12,380 nucleotides of DNA from Candidatus Altarchaeum sp. (GCA_018260615.1 JAGWDQ010000026.1:1-12380); one strand, 5' to 3'. Counted from the stretch's first letter, positions 1 through 12,380 are shown. Translations and numbers: made by a program. The notes: a model not told the origin generated them from the sequence alone.

Positions 1-13
1 GAAGTAATTTAGG

Positions 14-73
14 TTTCAGTATTTAAAAATCTTGCAGATTTTTAAAGATTGAAAACTTGTAGTTTTCAGTATA
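14..73. repeat. Intergenic palindromic repeat (A-tract hairpin family), sister of 8475-8536
   Basis: tttcagtatttaaaaatcttgcagatttttaaagattgaaaacttgtagttttcagtata aligns with 8475-8536 with only a few substitutions and 2 single-base gaps. It contains an 11-bp stem tttaaaaatct-tgc-agatttttaaa (22-46). Confidence 0.85.
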
Positions 74-211
74 GATTTTCAGTAATTCCTACCCGGGAGC
101 AGTTACCTATTTTTTTATTATTTAGCATTTAGTTCTTAATTGTTTTTTGATTATTTAAAATATAAATAACGAATTTTAATTATATGATAAGTTTTTGATA
201 AACCTTTAAAA

Positions 212-3759: not shown

Positions 3760-3902
3760 TCACACAAAGTCACCAGGTTACAGAATATAACTCCTTTGTG
3801 TCTCTGTGTCTTGGTGCGATTTTCAAAACGCAGAGTTTTGAAAATATCCGAGCGTTAGCGATGTTAGGAACTAATAAAACGAACTTTCCTGTACGATAAA
3901 AA
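3760..3902 (+). repeat. CACAAAG-arm palindromic repeat plus AATAAAACGAACTTTCCTGT tail, copy A (interrupted); sister copy at 10198-10302
   Basis: cacaaagtcaccaggttacagaatataactcctttgtgtctctgtgtcttggtg and aataaaacgaactttcctgtacgataaaaaa align almost base for base with 10209-10262 and 10272-10302. Lies between convergent genes. Confidence 0.9.
3819..3865 (+). mobile_element. 47-bp double-hairpin unit inserted into repeat copy A
   Basis: attttcaaaacgcagagttttgaaaatatccgagcgttagcgatgtt is absent from the sister copy at 10264 and is homologous to 8284-8329. Confidence 0.7.
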
Positions 3903-3945
3903 ATTATATAATAAAATTCATTAAAATTATATAACAAATCATAAA

Positions 3946-5259
3946 TTAGGCAACTATCTTCACTCCCTTGCATGCCGCATTCGGTGCATAAATCCCGCCT
4001 CTGTTTTCAACATCTTTGTCAATTCCCAAAATTTCCATACCTATAACCTTTCCACTCAACAGAAAATTTTTCAGCGGAATTTTGTTGCCATTTTCAACAT
4101 AAAAGCCCCTGTCAACCTTAACGGAAAATTCAGTTGTTGAAGAATTAGCCGTGTGCATTCCGCTTACCGAACAGACATATATTGCCTTTTTATATTCGTC
4201 AAAAATTTCCTTAACTTTGTTTCTGCTGTCAATAACAATATTGTGAAACCCTGTGGAAGGACTACCTGCTCCTGATCTTGCTGCATTTCCTGTCGGCTCA
4301 GCATTAAATTTCTTTGCCATAGTCCAGTCATAAGCAAAATTTTGGACAACTCCGTCTTTCATCAGCAAATTTTCCCTTGTTTTGCATCCTTCACCATCAA
4401 AAGTTGCAGAATTAACGCCTTTTTTCATTAACGGCTCATCAGTTATTGTCAAATTTAAATTTCCTATACTTTTGCCAATTTTTCCCGCAAGCAATGACTC
4501 ACCTTTGTCAACCGCCTCCGCATCAAAATTATTAACAAACAATGCGAGCAATTCGCTGAATGTCTGCTGATTAAATACAACCACATCGGGAATTTTTTTG
4601 ATTTTTCCCGGATTTAACGAGTCCGTTGCTTTTGTTTTTAAATTTCCCATAAAATTTCCGACATCAAATAAAAACCGTTCTTCTTTTTCATCAATTGCCG
4701 TTGATTTGTCTTTGGCATTACAATTCCCGCTAATGCACAATCCGCTTACCCCGAAAAAAGAGGTCTCCTCCTCGCATTCAACACCCTCCGAATTTACAAT
4801 TTTGCCCGATGCAATTCCGTAATCAATAGACCCTTCGCTCAATGTATTCCTTTCATCAAAAATTTTAAGGTAATCCCTGACATCATCCGGCTCAAAATCC
4901 AGAATTTTTCTGTCAACATCTTTGTATTTTTCTTTATTCGCCTCCGGAAGCCCGTAAAAATCAACCGGCTTTGAGAGTTTGGCAATCGTAACCGCTCTTT
5001 TTACAATGCCATCATCTAATTTATTTGATAAGACATATCCCTGTTTTTTGCCAGTAAATATCCTGAATCCGACATTAAAACCGGTTGCACTTTCAACTGA
5101 ACTGACTGTGTTTTTATGTAAATTTGCCGTTGTGCCGTTTGCCTGATACACATAAATTTCACAGTCACCGAATTTACTGCCCTGTTTTATAATCTTTTCT
5201 ATTTTTTCGTCATCAAACGCAAAAGATGTTTCCTTCTCTTTTATTGTGCGATTCTTCAT
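3946..5259 (-). CDS. pmbA: TldD/PmbA family protein, PmbA (TldE)-type
   Basis: FDGEG motif, GNAARSG...PST, VSGMHTANSSTTEFSV and N-terminal EIYV...G..GFRIF. No HExxxH, which points to TldE/PmbA rather than TldD. ATG at 5259 chosen over the TTG at 5271 used by the ORF track. Confidence 0.85.
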   Translation of the reverse strand: MKNRTIKEKETSFAFDDEKIEKIIKQGSKFGDCEIYVYQANGTTANLHKNTVSSVESATGFNVGFRIFTGKKQGYVLSNKLDDGIVKRAVTIAKLSKPVDFYGLPEANKEKYKDVDRKILDFEPDDVRDYLKIFDERNTLSEGSIDYGIASGKIVNSEGVECEEETSFFGVSGLCISGNCNAKDKSTAIDEKEERFLFDVGNFMGNLKTKATDSLNPGKIKKIPDVVVFNQQTFSELLALFVNNFDAEAVDKGESLLAGKIGKSIGNLNLTITDEPLMKKGVNSATFDGEGCKTRENLLMKDGVVQNFAYDWTMAKKFNAEPTGNAARSGAGSPSTGFHNIVIDSRNKVKEIFDEYKKAIYVCSVSGMHTANSSTTEFSVKVDRGFYVENGNKIPLKNFLLSGKVIGMEILGIDKDVENRGGIYAPNAACKGVKIVA

Positions 5260-5309
5260 TCTATTTGACAATTATTATATAAAAATCACATACTTTGTTA
5301 TATAAAACA

Positions 5310-5924
5310 TTATTTAAATTTCATATTATTTTTAAATTTCAGATAAAACCATATAACAAATATTATTACTGCTAAAATAAATACATAGTCCAATATAGAT
5401 GTGTATTGCTCAATCATAGACCAGTTCTGATTTAAGAGGTATCCCAAATATACCAAAATACCGCACCATATAAATGAGCCGACAAAAGTATATAAGGAAA
5501 ATTTTTTAATGTCCATCCTCGCGATTCCTGCCGGAAAAGAAATCAGATGCCTGACAACGGGAACAAACCTCGCTATAAAGACCGCCTTTTCGCCGTGCTT
5601 TTGGAAAAAATTTTCTGTTGTCGTCAAATGCCCCCCGGTTATTAATACATATTTTCCATACTTTAAAATAAATGCCCGTCCAAAAATTTTGCCCACATAA
5701 TATGAAAATAGTGACCCTATAAGCGAACCAATCGCTCCTGTCAGTATAACTGCCAGCATATTTAATTTCCCGTCATAAACCAAAAATCCTGCAAAAGGCA
5801 TAACTACCTCGCTTGGAACCGGAAGTGCTGTTGATTCCATTGCCATAAGTATAATTATTCCCGCATATCCTGCCTGCTCAATAAAATTGACACAAAAATC
5901 AAATATTGGCTCTATAAGACTCAT
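5310..5924 (-). CDS. dedA: DedA family membrane protein
   Basis: MAMESTALPVPSEVVMPFAG, GSLFSYYVG, FFQKHGEKAVFIARFVPVVRHLISFPAG..RM are canonical DedA motifs. Confidence 0.93.
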   Translation of the reverse strand: MSLIEPIFDFCVNFIEQAGYAGIIILMAMESTALPVPSEVVMPFAGFLVYDGKLNMLAVILTGAIGSLIGSLFSYYVGKIFGRAFILKYGKYVLITGGHLTTTENFFQKHGEKAVFIARFVPVVRHLISFPAGIARMDIKKFSLYTFVGSFIWCGILVYLGYLLNQNWSMIEQYTSILDYVFILAVIIFVIWFYLKFKNNMKFK

Positions 5925-6068
5925 TATTTTTTAGTTATATATAATAAATTAAACCTTCAAACAAATAATTAACAAAATTTAAAAATTTTTTATTTAGTTT
6001 TTATTTAATATGGCGTTCTAATTTATTATATAGAAAATTTAAAACATAAAATCCTAAAAATTTTAAAA
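5925..6068. promoter_or_regulatory. Divergent AT-rich promoter region (dedA / dnaG)
   Basis: 144-bp gap between divergent genes with TATA-like ttatatataa (~5935-5944) and ttattatata (~6023-6032). Position-based inference. Confidence 0.45.
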
Positions 6069-7286
6069 ATGTCAAAAGCACCAGCAGATACGATAAAATA
6101 TATTATACACGCAGATGTGTCAATAGACGGAGTAGTTGATAAGCCGGATGTTGTAGGAGCAATCTTCGGACACGCCGAGGGTTTGCTTGGAGAGGATCTG
6201 GAACTCAGGGATCTGCAAAAAACAGGAAGAATCGGTAGAATTGAAGTAAACATAAATTCGGTTGCAGGAAAGTCAGTGGGAAAAATAATTGTGCCATCCA
6301 GTTTAGATGTTGTTGAGACATCAATTATTGCCTCTGCGGTTGAGATGGTTGACAGAGTCGGCCCATGCGGAGCGGCAATCAGAATTATAGATATTGAAGA
6401 TACACGGTCAGCCAAAAGAAAAAAAATAATTGAGCGGGCAAAAGAATTAGTTAAAAAAATGATTATTGAACAGATTCCGGACAGTCAAAAGATAGAAGAA
6501 GAAGTTAGAGGTATGGTTCAGACAAGTCAGATTATTACTTATAAAGGGCTTCCGGCGGGTTCTGAAATAGAAACATCTGAAATAATGATAATAGTTGAGG
6601 GCAGAGCGGATATTTTAAATCTTCTTAAAGCGGATATTAAAAATACAATTGCAGTTGAAGGTACAAATGTTCCCGATGTGGTTTCTGAATTAACAAAAAA
6701 GAAGTCCGCGATTGCGTTCTTAGACGGTGACAGGGGAGGGGATATTATATTGAAAGAGCTTCTTCAAAAAGCGGATATTGACTATGTTGCAAGAGCACCA
6801 AGAGGAAGAGAGGTTGAGGACTTAGGAAAGAAAGAAATAATAATGGCATTAAGAAAGAAAATTCCTGCAGCACAATTAAGACAGGAAGAAACAAACCGGA
6901 CCGAAACAGGAACCGGACAACGGGTAAGAGAACATTCATTTCCGTTACCTGTAAAACCACAGGAAAGACCACCTGTGGAAGAACCAAAGGAAGATCCCGA
7001 GATAAAAATAAAAAATATTCTGCTGGAACAATTACAGAAAACCAAAGGCAGTTTAATGGCAAAATTATTTGATAAGGAAATAAAAATGATAACGGAAATT
7101 GAAATTAAGGATATGCTGACAACAATTCAGTCCATAAAACCACATGCTATTGTTTTTGACGGGATAATAACCCAGCGACTAATAGACGGGGCTGCTGAAA
7201 ACGGAGTAAAATATATTGCGGGAATTAATCAGGCAATGATATCAAACGCAAAGGAGATAAGTATAATACTTGAGAAAAGGCAATAA
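6069..7286 (+). CDS. dnaG: Archaeal DnaG-like protein (TOPRIM; exosome-associated in studied archaea)
   Basis: [48 protein letters not shown]-terminus, [20 protein letters not shown]...AVEG and [21 protein letters not shown]. Confidence 0.96.
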
Positions 7287-7384
7287 GGAAATTTAATATT
7301 TAAGGACTAATTAATAAATTTAATATATAAAAATAAATTTAATAATAAGGAAATTTAATATTTAATATATAAGGACTAATTAAT
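7282..7384 (+). repeat. Local direct duplication spanning the dnaG stop
   Basis: aataaggaaatttaatatttaa at 7282-7303 and 7344-7365; taaggactaattaat at 7301-7315 and 7370-7384. Confidence 0.75.
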
Positions 7385-7424
7385 TAAAAAAAATATTAAT
7401 TAAAAAATTTAAAAAATATGTAAA

Positions 7425-8006
7425 ATGGGAGAACTAACAGAGTCGGAAAGGGTAGAGATTGAATCAAAAAGGGAAATTATAGATAGTGTACCAAAGGTTA
7501 TTGTCTATGGGGGAATATCAGTAATGGTTTGGATTTTTACAATGCTTGTATATATACCATTAGGCGGAAGTTTGATGCTTGCAGAGGGTTTAAGCGTGGC
7601 GAATATTATTATGATTGTTGGATTTGTGGCATTAGTATTTTTTACATACAAGATTTTAAGAGAAATAAGAGATATTGCCAATGCTATCGGAGGATTGATT
7701 GCGGTGAAAAGTGGCGCATCCGGAGCAAGTAAAGAAGAAGTTGAACATATGCAAACTGCTGTGAGAGGAGTTGTATATGCAATTGTTGGTACGATAATGT
7801 TTGTGTTCCTGACAAGTGTTCTTAGGGGCTTAAATATAGGTGGATATACAAATTTAGGGCAAATGATTGTAGGAATTGGTTTAGTTGTGATGTTTATATG
7901 GGTAATTTTCCTGCTATACAGATCCGGAATGGCGGTATCCAAGGAATTAGAGAAATCAGCACACGAAAAAGCGGCAAAGATGCTGGAAGAGGCAGCAAAG
8001 GACTGA
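7425..8006 (+). CDS. Uncharacterised 4-TM membrane protein
   Basis: 193 aa, aaaATG start, four hydrophobic segments arranged as two hairpins, each followed by an amphipathic helix. No family recognised. Confidence 0.8.
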   Translation: MGELTESERVEIESKREIIDSVPKVIVYGGISVMVWIFTMLVYIPLGGSLMLAEGLSVANIIMIVGFVALVFFTYKILREIRDIANAIGGLIAVKSGASGASKEEVEHMQTAVRGVVYAIVGTIMFVFLTSVLRGLNIGGYTNLGQMIVGIGLVVMFIWVIFLLYRSGMAVSKELEKSAHEKAAKMLEEAAKD

Positions 8007-8040
8007 TGAGATTAGGAGATGAGATAAAAACAGGCAATCT

Positions 8041-8110
8041 GTTTTTTATCTTTTTTCTTTATTTCTTTAAAACATTAAAAGGCAATAACTTTATTTTTAT
8101 ATTTTTTATT
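8041..8110 (+). terminator. Probable oligo-T archaeal terminator region
   Basis: Several T6-T7 runs (gttttttatcttttttctttatttcttt...tatttttatattttttattt) 35-100 bp after the stop at 8006. Confidence 0.45.
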
Positions 8111-8179
8111 TATTATTCGGGCAATTAAAATAATTTAGTTAGCACTCAAATATTTTTAATAAATTTAAAAAATAAGTTA

Positions 8180-8536
8180 AGTTCGTTTCACCCTCATTTT
8201 TAAATCGCAGAGATTTGAAAATCTCCGAACGAAGTGAGGTGAAGATTTAAAAATTTCCGAGCAATATCAAAAATGCTTCAAGCATTTTCAAATCGTAGAG
8301 ATTTGAAAATCTCCGAACGAAGTGAGGTGATTTTTGAATATCCCAAAAATCCTGTAGATTTTTGCGATAGTAAAAATGCTTCAAGCATTTTTAGTATCCT
8401 AAAAACCTTGAAGGTTTTTACGACAGCGAGGTGATTTAAAAATCTTATAAATTTTAAAGATTGAAAACTCATATTTTCAGTATTTAAAAATCCTGTGGAT
8501 TTTTAAAGATTGAAAATCTTGCAGATTTTCAGTATA
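8180..8536. repeat. Nested cluster of palindromic repeats (REP/BIME-like mosaic)
   Basis: Two 46-bp double-hairpin units (8196-8241, 8284-8329), a tandem ~56-bp two-hairpin unit (8268-8370 and 8371-8426), a split GAGC..GCGA module (8244-8263 + 8423-8437), and tandem A-tract units (8434-8481, 8482-8532). Confidence 0.9.
8284..8329 (+). mobile_element. 46-bp double-hairpin unit inserted into a pre-existing hairpin
   Basis: Flanked by ATTTT at 8284-8288 and 8330-8334. Removing 46 bp restores the perfect stem tcaaaaatgct-tca-agcatttttga, whose intact sister is at 8371-8393. Confidence 0.75.
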
Positions 8537-8553
8537 TTTTTAATAAACTAAAA

Positions 8554-8835
8554 ATGGTAAAAAGTTATAACCAAAGGATTAAAGGAATTTTAGTATATTC
8601 TGTCTTACTTGCAATAATCACCTTAATATACTTTTATTTTGGGAAATTTTGGGAATTTATGTCAAAAATTTCATTTTTAAATGTAAATATTGTTATTCCC
8701 GTAACAAATTTTGTAAATTTAAACGGCAAGGAAATAATAATTGCAGGACTATTATCCGCAGGACTTATAATAGGAATAATTTTACTTTACTTAATAGGAA
8801 ATCAAATTTTAAAACTATTAGAGAAACAAAAATAA
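8554..8835 (+). CDS. Small 2-TM membrane protein, unknown function
   Basis: 93 aa, aaaATG start, two hydrophobic segments, positive C-tail. Confidence 0.7.
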   Translation: MVKSYNQRIKGILVYSVLLAIITLIYFYFGKFWEFMSKISFLNVNIVIPVTNFVNLNGKEIIIAGLLSAGLIIGIILLYLIGNQILKLLEKQK

Positions 8836-8845
8836 AAAAAATAAG

Positions 8846-9040
8846 ATGAAAATAACCGTTGAAATTGGCGATAAAAATGCTAAATTAATAGGAAAATTTT
8901 TGTTTGCATTAGGGGGATTTTTTGTTTTGATGGCATTAATGTCGGTAGCAACAACATCACTTATATTTCCTTCCCTCATTCTTAGCGTATTGGGAGGAAT
9001 ACTGCTGCTTTCGGGACTTTTTCTGATGATGAAACATTAG
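8846..9040 (+). CDS. Small 2-TM membrane protein, unknown function
   Basis: 64 aa, 10 bp after the previous stop, two hydrophobic segments. Confidence 0.65.
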   Translation: MKITVEIGDKNAKLIGKFLFALGGFFVLMALMSVATTSLIFPSLILSVLGGILLLSGLFLMMKH

Positions 9041-9156
9041 AGGGGTTTTGTGAATAATTGGTTCCAGGTTAAATTTTAGCTGTTTTATTTAATTCTTTTA
9101 AAATTTCATGATTCAGAGTATAATTTTTAATATATAATTTGGTAAAATTTAGCAAA

Positions 9157-10158
9157 ATGGCAATAGAACAGGCAATAGGTGCAATAGGACTTGGATTGTT
9201 CCAGCTTGTAGTTGGATTGATATTAGCAATAGCATGTATATATGTCGGATTTAGTTTGTTTGATAAAATATTAAAAGAAATTGATCTGCAGGAAGAGTTA
9301 AAGAGAGGAAATATCGCAATTGGAATTGTAACTGTGGCAATAATGATAACACTTGCAGGAATAATTAGCGGAGGTGTTAGCGGAATTACATCTGGCATAT
9401 CCAATATATCGGGGATGAATGTTGCGGATATACTTGTTAAAGTCGTTGTCCCCGGAATTGTACAGCTGATCATAGGAGTTGTGCTTGCAGTGGCGGCAAT
9501 TTATATGGCATTTAAGATTTGGGGCAAGATAACTGCAAAAATAGAAGAAACCGACGAACTAAAAAAGAATAATGTTGCAATTGGTATTGTTATGGCAGGT
9601 GTATTAATAGCAGTCGGATTTGTTATTCAGAGAGCAATAGGTGGAATTGGAGCGGCTATTACAACATTGTCGGTTGTTGGGATAGTGCTTGGATTACTTC
9701 AACTCGCAATCGGATTAATATTGGCAATGGCATGCATATATCTTGGATTTAGTTTGTTTAATAAAATACTGACAGAAATTGATTTACAGGATGAATTAAA
9801 CAAAGGAAACACCGCAGTTGGAATTGTATCCGCAGCAATAATGATAACATTGGCAGAAGTGATTGGAAGTGCTGTTAGTGGCATTACATCAGGACTGTTG
9901 GGAAAAGAGATGAATTTTATTGGTGCGATAGTCGGAGGTGTTGCTCAGTTAATAGTCGGAATCATATTTGCAGTTATTGCGATATACATAGCATTTAAGA
10001 TTTGGGATAAGATAACTGCAAAAATAGAAGAAGCGAGTGAATTAAAGAAGAATAATGTTGCAGTTGGCGTCGTTATGGCAGGCGTATTGATATCAGTCGG
10101 ATTTGTTATTCAGGGAGCAATCGGGGGAATCGGAGCAGGAATTGCAGCAGCATTTTAA
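9157..10158 (+). CDS. DUF350 (YjfL/UPF0719-like) membrane protein with four repeat units
   Basis: Four (D/E)..(E/D)EL(K/N)(R/K)(G/N)N.A(I/V)GIV motifs, each followed by hydrophobic helices. Two ~161-166 aa halves are visibly duplicated at DNA level (offset 498 then 483 bp). ATG at 9157 (aaaATG) preferred to the TTG at 9139. Confidence 0.85.
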   Translation: MAIEQAIGAIGLGLFQLVVGLILAIACIYVGFSLFDKILKEIDLQEELKRGNIAIGIVTVAIMITLAGIISGGVSGITSGISNISGMNVADILVKVVVPGIVQLIIGVVLAVAAIYMAFKIWGKITAKIEETDELKKNNVAIGIVMAGVLIAVGFVIQRAIGGIGAAITTLSVVGIVLGLLQLAIGLILAMACIYLGFSLFNKILTEIDLQDELNKGNTAVGIVSAAIMITLAEVIGSAVSGITSGLLGKEMNFIGAIVGGVAQLIVGIIFAVIAIYIAFKIWDKITAKIEEASELKKNNVAVGVVMAGVLISVGFVIQGAIGGIGAGIAAAF

Positions 10159-10188
10159 AAATCTCCGAACATCTGAGAGTTGATTTTA
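10157..10188 (+). repeat. Degenerate copy of the mini-hairpin module abutting the DUF350 stop
   Basis: aaaaatctccgaacatctgagagttgatttta versus consensus aaaatctccgaacgaagtgaggtgattt. Confidence 0.55.
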
Positions 10189-10197
10189 AAAGAATGC

Positions 10198-10302
10198 TCA
10201 CACAAAGCCACAAAGTCACCAAGTTATAGAATATAACTCCTTTGTGTCCCTGTGTCTTGGTGTGAGAGAACAATAAAACGAACTTTCCTGTGCGATAAAA
10301 AA
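10198..10302 (+). repeat. CACAAAG-arm palindromic repeat, copy B (uninterrupted)
   Basis: Arms tcacacaaagccacaaagtcaccaag / ctttgtgtccctgtgtcttggtgtga around a 16-nt spacer (10224-10239), then the tail shared with 3873-3902. Confidence 0.9.
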
Positions 10303-10358
10303 GTATATTTTATCCCCCTTATCTTTTTTGTAATTGTTTAGATAATTAAAATGTAATT

Positions 10359-10563
10359 CCTCACACGGAGACACAAAGAACTATGATATATATACTCTGT
10401 CACCTCACTTCGTTCGGAGATTTTCAAATCTCTGCGATTTGAAAATAAATTCGCTTCGCTCTCATTTTTTAAATCTCAAAGATTTAAAAAATCTCCGAGC
10501 AACAGCGAGATGATATTTTCAAAACTCTCCGTTTTGAAAATGGCTCTGTGACTTTGTGTGAGG
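10359..10563. repeat. CACAAAG-arm repeat, copy C, carrying a 149-bp cassette of hairpin modules
   Basis: 20-bp arms 10359-10378 and 10544-10563 (16/20 inverted match). CTCTGT is duplicated at 10395-10400 and 10544-10549. The insert contains a reverse 46-bp unit (10401-10446), a GAGCGAAGCGA module, and hairpins at 10466-10490 and 10516-10540. Confidence 0.85.
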
Positions 10564-10600
10564 TTTTTTTAAAAGACTGATAAAAACAAAAATTAGACAT

Positions 10601-10678
10601 AAAATTATTGTAACTACTCACAGGTTAACAAAATTTACCTGTAATTTTTTGGGAGGGTGAGTAGTTACAAATTATTTT
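10601..10678. repeat. MITE-like inverted repeat (TTGTAACTACTCAC / GTGAGTAGTTACAA)
   Basis: Perfect 14-bp inverted repeat at 10608-10621 and 10657-10670, extendable imperfectly to ~21 bp. Related partial copies at 10720-10741 and 97-106 (gagcagttac). Confidence 0.75.
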
Positions 10679-10794
10679 CTCTGTGCCTCTGTGGTGCTAA
10701 ACAAATACTCTTTTTTTATTTGTAACTCTCATACAGGTAATTCACAGAAGTAGGTTATATAACCCTGTATGATGAATTTATATATTATTTCTTT

Positions 10795-12060
10795 TCACAT
10801 CCCCACCTCTATCTTCACATTCAACCTGTTTTCCAATCTTTCCTTTATTTCAGAAATTTCTATTTGCAGATTTAGAATGCCTTTCTCAAATCGTTCCGCA
10901 TCTTTTTTATTTTGTTCAGTCCTTATGTTTATATCGGCAATGCATGTTTCGGTCCTTTTTATTTCATCCCTGACATCGTATCTCTTAATATCCTCATTAG
11001 TCCTTTTTTCCTTTTCCAAAATTTCTTTATACCTTTTCTTTTCCTCAACAATGACTGAAAAGTCCTTTTCATAAGTCAAAATTTTCTCCTGCTCGTCTTC
11101 GTTCAAACCGGCAGGCAGTTTCAGGAAATTTAATAGTTCATTGTCATCCCTTTCAAGGAAAATCTTCGGATTGTCTATATAAAGAGAAATTTCCATTATG
11201 TTATTTTTCCTCCTTATCTTTTTCAATATCCTGCCGGCTGAAGAAATTTTTGAATAAATGCTGCTTTCTATTCTGTCCTTCTCTGTTAGAATTTTACTTT
11301 GCTCATTCAGTGCATCATTCATTAATTTAAATTTTTCCGATTCTTCCAGTTCTTTCTGTCTTTCCTGATGCTCTTGCAGTTCTCTCTCAAAGTCAATTAA
11401 TGAATTTTTTATTTCCGCAGTCGCTTTCTTCTCGCTGATGAATGTATTAAATTTGTCATCAAGAATTTTGTGTTCTTCATATTGTTCAATATTCATTTTA
11501 TTTAAATCCATCGCATTATTAGCAAGTATTTTTAAATTTCTCCTGAAATTTTCCATCTGGGAATGTGCAGCAGCAACATATCTGCCGTATTGTATATCCG
11601 TCTCTCCGCAGGTATGTGCAATTTTAAAAATTAACGACTTTATTTCGGAAATATTTGCATCTTTGTCTATCTCCGTATTCAGCACATTTTCCATAATTTT
11701 GATGAACATATTCTTATTGCTCTGCACAATTCTTTCTGCTCTTTTATTTGGCATATTACTAATTTTTTCTATTCTAATTTCTTCAACAATGTTTTTCATA
11801 TTTTTCATAGACCTCATACATTCGTCAATTAATGGCATTGCTTTCTCTTTTGTTGCATTTTCATCTTTTTCCTGCTTTTTCTTTATAAAAGCATCCAAAT
11901 TTTTATACAAAATTTTCTCCCTGTCTGATTTTTCTAAATTTTCATTGTTTTTATTTGTTTGTTCTGCCTGTTGTTTTCCTGCGTGCCTTTCTTCCGTTTC
12001 TTTTCCTTTTCCAAAAATTTTACCCAAATCTCCCAAAATCTGTGTGAATTTACCGCTCAT
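10795..12060 (-). CDS. Uncharacterised predominantly alpha-helical / coiled-coil protein (421 aa)
   Basis: Long K/E-rich ORF with heptad character. ATG at 12060 (aacaaacATG, MSGKF...) preferred because the upstream extension to 12237 crosses a TATA box, the IS end and tnpB. No Walker A or other catalytic motif seen. Confidence 0.8.
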   Translation of the reverse strand: MSGKFTQILGDLGKIFGKGKETEERHAGKQQAEQTNKNNENLEKSDREKILYKNLDAFIKKKQEKDENATKEKAMPLIDECMRSMKNMKNIVEEIRIEKISNMPNKRAERIVQSNKNMFIKIMENVLNTEIDKDANISEIKSLIFKIAHTCGETDIQYGRYVAAAHSQMENFRRNLKILANNAMDLNKMNIEQYEEHKILDDKFNTFISEKKATAEIKNSLIDFERELQEHQERQKELEESEKFKLMNDALNEQSKILTEKDRIESSIYSKISSAGRILKKIRRKNNIMEISLYIDNPKIFLERDDNELLNFLKLPAGLNEDEQEKILTYEKDFSVIVEEKKRYKEILEKEKRTNEDIKRYDVRDEIKRTETCIADINIRTEQNKKDAERFEKGILNLQIEISEIKERLENRLNVKIEVGM

Positions 12061-12175
12061 GTTTGTTGCGTTTAATTTTAGTATTGTTAGATGCAATTTA
12101 TGTTGAATTATATAATTGGCAAAACCTACTTTGAGTGATTTCGCTTTCTTTTCAGAATGCGAATTTGTCAGATTT

Positions 12176-12380
12176 TCAATATACCTCCAATCTAACCGGA
12201 TGACACCCTGCACCCTGTATTCCATTTGCGAACGCATTTGGAAATGCTTTCTTTATTATGTTGTAAGCACCATTTAAAAATCCTTTGAGGATTTTTAAAT
12301 CTCCGAACGAAGTGAGGTGATTTACATCAGCATTTATGATTTTGCCCGATAATGTTTTAAACAATCCTCTGCAAATTCTC
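12176..12380 (-). CDS. tnpB: RNA-guided endonuclease TnpB (IS605 OrfB/IS1341-type), C-terminal fragment with a 16-aa in-frame insertion in RuvC-III; possibly inactive
   Basis: Minus frame from 12379 reads RICRGLFKTLSGKIINADVN[HLTSFGDLKILKGFLN]GAYNIIKKAFPNAFANGIQGAGCHPVRLEVY*. Without the bracket this is the familiar R..RGLF.S..G..INADVNGAYNI..K.FP.AF..GI.G...HP TnpB tail. Confidence 0.88.
   Translation of the reverse strand, partial: RICRGLFKTLSGKIINADVNHLTSFGDLKILKGFLNGAYNIIKKAFPNAFANGIQGAGCHPVRLEVY
12272..12319 (+). mobile_element. 48-bp double-hairpin unit inserted in tnpB
   Basis: Flanked by ATTTA at 12272-12276 and 12320-12324. Contains a 12-bp stem (12273-12299) and a 27-mer (12297-12323) identical to 8307-8333. 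Confidence 0.85.

Follow-up and report, generated by a model that had tools for sequence, protein, structure and literature searches.

To our knowledge, a mover is known for only a few small hairpin repeats: for REP elements it is RAYT, and RPE and MJRE have none. REP and REPIN elements probably travel as single-stranded DNA and leave no duplication, and IS200/IS605 elements, which rely on TnpA, insert 3′ of four or five conserved nucleotides. The mobiliser of REP/REPIN elements (PMC2817692, PMC3733652) is RAYT, a Y1 HUH transposase. RPE of Rickettsia (Ogata et al. 2000) and MJRE1–3 of Methanocaldococcus jannaschii (Suyama, Lathe and Bork 2005), both summarised in PMC2229807, are short lineage-specific hairpin repeats of ~100–150 nt, built as one long palindrome with inverted ends, and classical prokaryotic MITEs have been reviewed (PMC10969869). 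Here we describe a smaller repeat from Candidatus Altiarchaeum, an uncultivated archaeon from groundwater. An earlier note on this DNA did not recognise it as a described family, and the literature we searched likewise yielded no description.

The DNA analysed (the window) is 12,380 nt long. The repeat unit is 42–48 nt of DNA and comprises two small side-by-side hairpins. Hairpin 1, the 5′ part, is AT-rich, with a near-perfect stem ATTT…AAAT and a variable interior. Hairpin 2, the 3′ part, is 19 nt long and almost invariant (N-TCCGA-NN-GNA-NN-GAGGT-N′), combining three covarying pairs with tandem G·A/A·G and T·T. With a covariance model (CM) built from 32 units, all five copies reported earlier in the window were recovered at 51–76 bits. 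Three are canonical 46-nt units, at 8196–8241 (+ strand, 72.7 bits, hairpin 1 stem with one T·G), 8284–8329 (+, 74.6 bits, hairpin 1 at 8284–8310 and hairpin 2 at 8311–8329) and 10401–10446 (− strand, 75.7 bits, followed by ACAGAG on its own strand). A 48-nt unit at 12272–12319 (+, 61.3 bits) lies antisense and in frame within tnpB. The remaining copy, at 3819–3865 (+, 50.8 bits), is a diverged 47-nt unit whose hairpin 2 (ATCCGAGCG..GCGATGTT) shows compensation at pairs 1:19 and 7:13. Exact matches to the 19-mer lie at 8223–8241(+), 8311–8329(+), 10401–10419(−) and 12301–12319(+), with none expected from shuffles. Lower-scoring copies include a variant at 10464–10512 (+, 41.6 bits) with a 4-nt loop in hairpin 2 (CTCCGAGC-AACA-GCGAGATG) and two degenerate or partial units at 10450–10491 and 10501–10541 (−, 37.5 and 37.7 bits) within a nested mosaic. 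Two intergenic repeat mosaics, neither assigned to a strand, hold many of these copies: 8115–8549, with two units, corresponds to a 61-nt orthologous spacer in the sister genome G003, and 10160–10807, with the minus-strand unit and variants, to one of 50 nt. Perfect head-to-tail arrays of the unit also occur.

The fold is conserved at the level of pairing. In the unit alignment 98.8% of cells are paired and both sides have changed at 9 of 16 pairs; none of 500 shuffles did as well, and slid controls collapsed. Pair 1:19 of hairpin 2 is found as CG 78, AT 46, GC 9 and TA 5 times, the G·A/A·G and T·T positions are invariant, and stems stay near-perfect even as copies diverge, with G·T mismatches in excess of A·C (11 versus 3). 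Under RNA energy parameters hairpin 2 with an AAAU/AUUU extension folds on the + strand only; under DNA parameters no hairpin 2 fold was obtained. The double hairpin proposed earlier is thus backed by covariation and RNA parameters as far as hairpin 2 is concerned, although that hairpin is irregular and DNA parameters do not reproduce it. A strand-specific fold with conserved G·A and T·T and excess G·T fits a single-strand intermediate. Searches of the window and related loci against Rfam 15 returned only chance microRNA matches far under threshold. Hammerhead, K-turn and sarcin–ricin readings of hairpin 2, compared by eye, disagree at conserved positions, and a likeness to loop C of 5S rRNA (CCCGAAC..GAAGU) was set aside, as its pairing differs and the Rfam 5S model gave no match.

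Genome-wide, hairpin 2 is present in 147 strict and ~170 relaxed copies against ~1.2 expected by composition. Among copies with at most one mismatch, A lies directly 3′ in 163 of 164, AAAT lies 5′ of nearly all, and no permuted unit was found. A few copies are 5′-truncated (on contigs C113, C105 and C68). Each of the four genomes of the genus contains the family, with 100 or more matches per genome. Outside it, among 56 genomes of the class, there were six matches in one other family and none in 55 others, and one more genome had a single marginal match (E 0.004). The unit is therefore lineage-specific and rare or absent elsewhere in the class. No two unrelated sites carry an identical unit sequence, so a very recent burst is not apparent. 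Four matches in viral contigs, all lacking the AAAT/A flanks, are at chance level, and a 17-mer found in Larkinella and further Cytophagales belongs to coding sequence, specifying the C-terminal …TSLRSE of ~800-aa paralogs unrelated to the unit. A 29-nt hairpin of the unit does recur in other organisms, within a ~150-nt structured element resembling a single-copy RNA gene.

Paralogous repeats provided 28 non-redundant filled/empty pairs. At 12272 the unit sits in the 3′ end of a tnpB element (12133–12380, − strand, including a 15-bp terminal inverted repeat), whose family has no relation to the unit. Precisely these 48 nt are missing from five paralogous tnpB copies, which confirms the empty state NADVN|GAYNI rebuilt earlier from the sequence; the insertion adds 16 stop-free codons, giving an ORF of 427 aa versus 409–414 aa in empty copies. 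The unit at 8284–8329 interrupts a host hairpin (arms 8269–8283 and 8330–8335), and 14 empty paralogs give back AAAAATGCTTCAAGC|ATTTTT exactly, again as reconstructed for the perfect hairpin near 8267–8337. For the host repeat of the 3819–3865 copy, an empty paralogous counterpart lies at ~10262–10300 in the window (u59 family, 16 empties). Orthologous genes give the same picture: the isoleucyl-tRNA synthetase (IleRS) junction GGCT|AT is empty in G001–G003, and the DNA polymerase D (PolD) orthologs of three congeneric genomes have no insertion. Different units were also found inserted at the same site. Together, these results demonstrate many independent insertions of the unit, with boundaries exact to the base, and they agree with the proposal of a very small non-autonomous element. 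With orthologous sites filled and empty between related genomes, boundaries sharp across the genome and independent assemblies in agreement, none of the findings that the earlier note would have taken as a refutation was made. Logan contigs of public runs skip 46 nt at 8283/8330 and 48 nt at 12271/12320; we do not take these skips as population polymorphism, because empty paralogs could produce them. We discarded a scheme in which the target serves to generate hairpin 1 afresh, given that the same site holds different units and that nearest-neighbour distances of 1–3 are in line with ordinary descent.

Insertion always occurs immediately 5′ of an A. This base follows the unit in 78 of 78 distinct contexts, extending a pattern first seen in a few window copies; ATTT is present at 31 of 78 targets, and position −3 is G in 55%. 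The target site bears a weak likeness to the head-to-tail junction of the unit itself (G-Y-N|ATTT), the left flank being similar to the unit's 3′ end and the right flank to its 5′ end. Junction repeats of 0, 1, 2, 5, 6 and 9 nt were found, in keeping with the variable duplications already suspected, and most insertions show neither target duplication nor deletion. At least one insertion carries a 7-bp ACAGAGC duplication with one extra base, seen when copies on contigs C15 and C124, related to the 10401 unit, are compared with the empty sites on C37 and C60. Terminal inverted repeats are absent, as had been claimed: the ATTT… and …GAGGTN ends are not inverted. In two tRNA genes the unit begins exactly at the discriminator A.

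Copies also lie inside genes for PolD DP2, IleRS, archaeosine TGT, prephenate dehydratase, DNA methylases and TnpB. All seven deep genic copies have a length of 3n, against 25 of 72 elsewhere (p=0.0012), and are therefore read through in translation rather than spliced. Genic copies thus persist only if their length is 3n and they are stop-free. The IleRS and PolD insertions fall in variable linkers. Orientation relative to genes is random (18/18/16/12), with no link between the unit and transcription, and copies do not cluster significantly by strand along contigs (P=0.19; few data). Essential archaeal enzymes (PolD, IleRS, tRNA-guanine transglycosylase) hence gain 14–16-residue inserts from selfish DNA, and one tandem insert in a protein reaches 96 residues; such inserts provide a path by which proteins acquire new loops.

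The search for a mobilising enzyme covered four genomes of the genus (G000–G003), which are 65–87% complete. Y1_Tnp (PF01797; RAYT/TnpA) had no match in any of them, with the control positive in 6 of 14 reference genomes, so the analogy to REP/RAYT drawn in the earlier note failed its defining test. GIY-YIG was absent from all four genomes with working controls; Y2_Tnp and Viral_Rep also gave no match in the four, but there the controls were silent too. RVT_1 was absent from three of the four genomes, and the only reverse transcriptase (RT), in G002, lies in a DGR with a bAvd gene. Three genomes each have one gene of the Phage_integrase family and none was found in the fourth; the four genomes have no extra tyrosine recombinase, with a working control here too, and a single one per genome is consistent with the housekeeping XerA. 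An enzyme encoded elsewhere in the genome, as had been supposed, was thus not found in the four genomes among the families searched, and no autonomous version of the unit was found. Multi-copy ORF families comprise archaeal ATPases, AAA_14/DUF4143, Schlafen-like, Bro-N, PIN, RadC and TnpB, and two further ones have no family or Atlas match. Two candidate sources were dismissed: an IS-end-like context of ~15 copies of one unit subfamily proved to be an unrelated ~205-bp TIR MITE carrying a unit, and the tnpB element has 15-bp inverted ends with nothing in common with the unit and no shared hairpin. With the searches for Y1/RAYT, Y2, viral Rep and GIY-YIG genes negative and the RT being that of a DGR, we can only infer how the unit moves. 

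We suggest that the unit is probably a lineage-specific, non-autonomous mobile DNA micro-element that moves as a folded single DNA strand. Hairpin 2 would be the recognition site of a nuclease or strand-transferase cutting at its 3′ foot (N19|A), and the AAAT 5′ of hairpin 2 would pair with ATTT, whether in the target or at the 5′ end of the unit itself; such pairing would account for both the preferred target and the tandem arrays. The strand-specific, hairpin-guided insertion enzyme would then lie outside the families searched. A bolder extension, which we offer tentatively and regard as doubtful, makes the 19-nt hairpin (tandem G·A, GNA triloop, T·T) the site of a novel archaeal transposase or recombinase that is directed by hairpins in single-strand DNA and has no relation to Y1/Y2 HUH enzymes, RT, GIY-YIG or integron integrases; the module shared with ~150-nt structured elements of small-genome groundwater organisms (DPANN and others) would then point to a wider uncatalogued system.

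It is unlikely that the unit spreads with no dedicated enzyme at all, through replication template switching or microhomology-mediated repair that takes tandem or nearby donors to AT-rich sites, hairpins provoking the polymerase jumps and quasi-palindrome correction maintaining the stems. Such a process would suit junction microhomology that varies from 0 to 6 nt, flanks that echo the unit's own ends, the perfect tandem arrays, stems near-perfect despite divergence and the failure to find a transposase. It fits poorly with the invariant register of A, AAAT and unpermuted units; moreover, the microhomology is frequently just 1 nt, and correction would remove the non-Watson–Crick positions kept in hairpin 2. 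Nor do random orientation to neighbouring genes, antisense copies within ORFs filtered for 3n, orthologous sites filled or empty among sister species and the lack of any Rfam family match favour a unit that is primarily a functional structured RNA or protein-binding site, serving RNA processing or stability or a conserved protein, and spreading only secondarily. We consider this quite unlikely, even with strand-specific covariation, G·U-type mismatches, a hairpin 2 that RNA parameters reproduce, the 29-nt hairpin common to an RNA-gene-like element of other organisms and units placed exactly at tRNA 3′ ends in its favour.

Single-strand recombination by a tyrosine recombinase, as at integron attC sites, would treat hairpin 2 with AAAT/ATTT as a mini attC and hairpin 1 as the 'cassette'. 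The missing duplication, a fixed crossover point beside a hairpin with unpaired bases and the shared ATTT start of unit and downstream flank are what it would lead one to expect; the lone XerA-like genes, the absence of RYYYAAC/GTTRRRY boxes from the unit and a 27-nt site far smaller than attC (57–141 nt) make it very unlikely. Most improbable is a retro-element whose transcript is copied by RT, which would recognise the 3′ hairpin, and is integrated through target-primed synthesis: the structure conserved at the 3′ end, the variable 3′-junction microhomology and the few 5′-truncated copies would agree with it, but RVT_1 occurs in one genome of four, in the DGR, and most insertions lack duplication or deletion. 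The single-stranded DNA or RNA route envisaged in the earlier note therefore narrows: the strand-specific fold fits a single-strand intermediate, and an RNA/RT route is disfavoured, because three of four genomes have no RT and the remaining one is that of a DGR. Overall, the earlier interpretation is partly supported: its core, a very small non-autonomous element with many independent insertions, holds, and its REP/RAYT analogy fails.

The micro-element is an unusually clean case, with a minimal length of 42–48 nt, a base-exact rule, dozens of filled/empty pairs and a strand-specific structure; with the usual enzyme families apparently missing from the genus, the question of its mover becomes directly testable. 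In practice, the unit also breaks up assemblies of these abundant subsurface carbon fixers.

Among known systems, integron attC sites differ from the unit, which has no R″/R′ boxes, is below 57–141 nt and is accompanied by one tyrosine recombinase gene in each of three genomes and by none found in the fourth. Like classical MITEs it is small, non-autonomous, high in copy number and found in nested insertions, but it differs from DDE-mobilised ones in lacking terminal inverted repeats and a fixed-length target duplication; the same genome holds, by contrast, a genuine TIR MITE of ~205 bp. With IS200/IS605 elements and their miniature derivatives (PATEs) it shares the absence of TIRs and of target duplication, hairpins at the ends and insertion beside a short specific sequence, possibly read by pairing with an internal guide; it departs from them in that, read along the folding strand, the conserved base of the target comes 3′ of the insertion point, a single base is obligatory and there is no TnpA. 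REP/REPIN elements are likewise very short, high-copy imperfect hairpins with conserved, strand-specific structure, yet the unit has no GTAG/CGTC head (GTAG is found in one loop variant only) and no inverted doublets, its genic copies are frequent, and Y1_Tnp is absent from the four genomes. RPE and MJRE, compared by description, resemble it in lacking a known mover and in combining intergenic copies with in-frame, non-disruptive ones in conserved genes. The unit is three times smaller than these, places two hairpins side by side instead of one palindrome, inserts base-exactly 5′ of an A, usually without duplication, and forms head-to-tail arrays.

Contig C26 (12.4 kb, taken in its entirety) belongs to a 2.23-Mb assembly with 33% GC and 87% completeness. 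Scanned with a covariance model built in this analysis, it returned all five units named in the earlier note, at 3819-3865(+), 8196-8241(+), 8284-8329(+), 10401-10446(-) and 12272-12319(+), with scores of 51-76 bits, together with three additional degenerate variants around 10450-10541. Each unit was then deleted in silico and the joined flanks were sought across the source genome, G000, which yielded 28 non-redundant pairs of filled and empty sites, all aligned without gaps. The unit has moved, and its boundaries are base-exact. Two empty states rebuilt in the earlier note were borne out: five empty tnpB paralogs exist, the filled copy remaining open (427 aa versus 409-414), and 14 empty paralogs were found for the host hairpin that carries the unit at 8284 (arms 8269-8283/8330-8335). 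One site in paralogous host repeats (AAAAATGCTTSAAGC|ATTTTT) has taken up at least five different unit types, and another (CGCCCGC|ATTTTC) two different units. The 48-nt unit in IleRS is missing in three congeneric genomes, where the nucleotide junction reads GGCT|AT, as is the unit in the DNA polymerase D large subunit. Where the window has repeat mosaics of 436 and 649 nt, the sister genome G003 has spacers of 61 and 50 nt. Further abundant repeats in the window (1-90, 8434-8545 and 10195-10265), comprising TTTAAAAATC..GATTTTTAAAGATTGAAAA..TTTTCAGTAT modules and long CACAAAG/CTTTGTG inverted repeats, occur in dozens of copies in every genome of the genus and are landing sites of the unit.

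Units measure 42-48 nt, most commonly 46 or 48, and consist of two hairpins. Hairpin 1 is AT-rich and near-perfect, with a stem of 9-13 bp and a loop of 3-5 nt; its outer ATTT/AAAT is almost invariant, and its interior varies among copies (66 distinct sequences, nearest-neighbour distance 1-3). Hairpin 2 follows the pattern N1-T-C-C-G-A-N7-N8-(GNA)-N12-N13-G-A-G-G-T-N19. Among 147 strict copies, pair 1:19 was CG in 78, AT in 46, GC in 9 and TA in 5, pair 7:13 was AT in 136 and GC in 6, and pair 8:12 was CG in 131 and TA in 14; the loop appeared as GAA, GGA, AAA or AGA, and G5.A15, A6.G14 and T2.T18 were unchanged throughout. In an alignment of 32 units, 98.8% of cells were paired and 9 of 16 pairs had changed on both sides; pairing as good arose in none of 500 shuffles, and the signal collapsed once the partner was slid. 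This fold is strand-specific. The opposite strand would carry C.T and A.A in place of the conserved G.A and T.T, stem mismatches were G.T in 11 cases versus A.C in 3, and RNA energy parameters reproduced hairpin 2 with its AAAU/AUUU extension only on the plus strand. With DNA parameters hairpin 1 folded and hairpin 2 did not; hairpin 2 therefore rests on covariation, not thermodynamics. The loop C region of the 5S rRNA of G000 itself (L240:1501-1616), CAUCCCGAACGCAGAAGUUAAG, resembles hairpin 2 (AUCUCCGAAC-GAAGUGAGG); its pairing is unlike that of hairpin 2, so the resemblance may be coincidence.

By the covariance model, each of the four genomes in the genus has at least 100 copies. Among the class genomes searched outside the genus, one genome of another family held 6 copies, a lone marginal match (E 0.004) came from one more, and 55 others gave none. 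Exact matches to the unit core in public genomes were from Candidatus Altarchaeum/Altiarchaeales, and the 22-base specified pattern occurred in 71 metagenome contigs. Metagenome contigs of 36-49% GC also contain a structured element of ~150 nt with three covarying helices and alternative CGAAA/TTTCG pairings, whose first arm is the unit's 29-nt hairpin, letter-for-letter hairpin 2 with its AAAAT flank (L178:4208-4360(-), L182:1440-1593(+), L186:5721-5872(-), L213:824-980(-), L214:788-941(-) and L227:5165-5317(+); shorter forms in L202 and L192). This element had no match in Rfam, often lies near or beside tRNA genes and has one or a few copies per genome in the three genomes queried. A 17-mer shared with the unit is borne by a ~120-nt non-coding repeat of rumen Alphaproteobacteria MAGs (L050, L080, L012, L022 and others), where it sits between the long-range complementary segments GAAGATGCCTTGAC/GTCAAGGCATCTTC and GAGGCATGAC/GTCATGCCTC; the genome G064 has 12 copies, some in tandem. 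Matches to the 17-mer in Larkinella were rejected as unrelated coding sequence.

Insertion obeys a sharp rule. In all 78 distinct flank contexts the unit was followed by A (78/78; background 34%), and in 31 of them by ATTT; position -3 was G in 55% and A was almost never found at -2. The target therefore looks like the junction that two units form head to tail, GGTN|ATTT. The variable junction duplications described in the earlier note recurred across the 28 filled/empty pairs, with repeats of 1 nt in 14, 2 nt in four, 5-6 nt in five, 0 nt in four and 9 nt in one, and there is therefore no fixed duplication. One exceptional event left a direct duplication of 7 bp (ACAGAGC) around the unit, with an additional C, a feature that the other events lack (filled, G000:C15:760-940 and C124:19340-19520; versus C37:3100-3260 and C60:49920-50060). 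Other hairpins, units among them, are frequent landing places, the insertion lying in the loop or at the foot, and some units form perfect head-to-tail arrays of 5-6 identical copies. At tRNA-Ser(CGA) and tRNA-Arg(GCG), units start exactly at the discriminator A (L116:160-290, L117:165-285; G000:C96), so that the 3' trailer of these tRNAs begins with the element.

Units were also found in frame within genes for PolD DP2, IleRS, archaeosine tRNA-guanine transglycosylase, prephenate dehydratase, two DNA methylases, an FAD protein and TnpB. An NYN-domain protein contains six identical 48-nt tandem units adding 96 residues (L112, G000:C124:1102-1971), and another in-frame array has five, adding 80 (L113, G000:C15:4691-5290). 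All seven copies deep in long ORFs were 42 or 48 nt; lengths were thus multiples of three in 7/7, versus 25/72 elsewhere (Fisher p=0.0012), and the IleRS and PolD units occupy linkers that vary among orthologs. Translation of the units, with selection purging the others, would be expected to leave this pattern, which argues against their removal from the RNA. Units were oriented at random with respect to neighbouring genes (18/18/16/12). The IleRS of the sister genome G001 (L147) has a separate 41-residue low-complexity Ser/Asn insert at alignment columns 229-270, which the other genomes lack.

The earlier note had proposed looking for a Y1, GIY-YIG or reverse transcriptase (RT) gene as the mover, and this search did not yield one. 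Y1_Tnp and GIY-YIG had no match in the four genomes of the genus, with working controls; RVT_1 was missing from three of them, and the sole RT, in the sister genome G002, lies in a diversity-generating retroelement adjoining a bAvd gene (L255, G002:C124:1-4725; RT of 345 aa, bAvd-like gene and a nucleotidyltransferase/HEPN pair between). Units follow closely after the stop codon of this RT. A tyrosine recombinase gene was present once in each of three genomes and absent from the fourth (control worked); Y2_Tnp and Viral_Rep were not found in the genus, though their control searches were also without a match. The multi-copy ORF families examined included no transposase candidate. A tnpB-only element of ~1.34 kb with 15-bp inverted ends (GAGTGATTTCGCTTT) is present in ~7 copies of 92-100% identity (window 12133-12380; L003-L008), and no TnpA (Y1) was found in the four genomes of its genus. 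A classical MITE of ~205 bp with ~30-bp terminal inverted repeats (GGTGCTGACCCACTAAAATTGGGATAATTA...) occurs at G000:C44:6719-6962 and ~14 other places; it contains one unit, or two in some copies.

We favour a model in which a single-strand, hairpin-guided cut-and-join reaction would act at the 3' foot of hairpin 2, with the AAAT 5' of hairpin 2 pairing either with target ATTT or with the ATTT that opens the unit itself. Such a reaction, if it occurs, would explain why certain targets are preferred, why the register is sharp and how tandem arrays arise. The main rival is template switching, which would need no dedicated enzyme; the invariant register of the unit weakens it. There is a real chance that the mover is of a new type.

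No description of the unit was found in the literature searched. Structurally it is like REP elements. By their defining tests it falls outside REP/RAYT, IS200/IS605 derivatives, classical MITEs and attC sites. Functionally, the unit is like RPE of Rickettsia and MJRE of Methanocaldococcus, which are selfish hairpin repeats tolerated in frame (PMC2229807).
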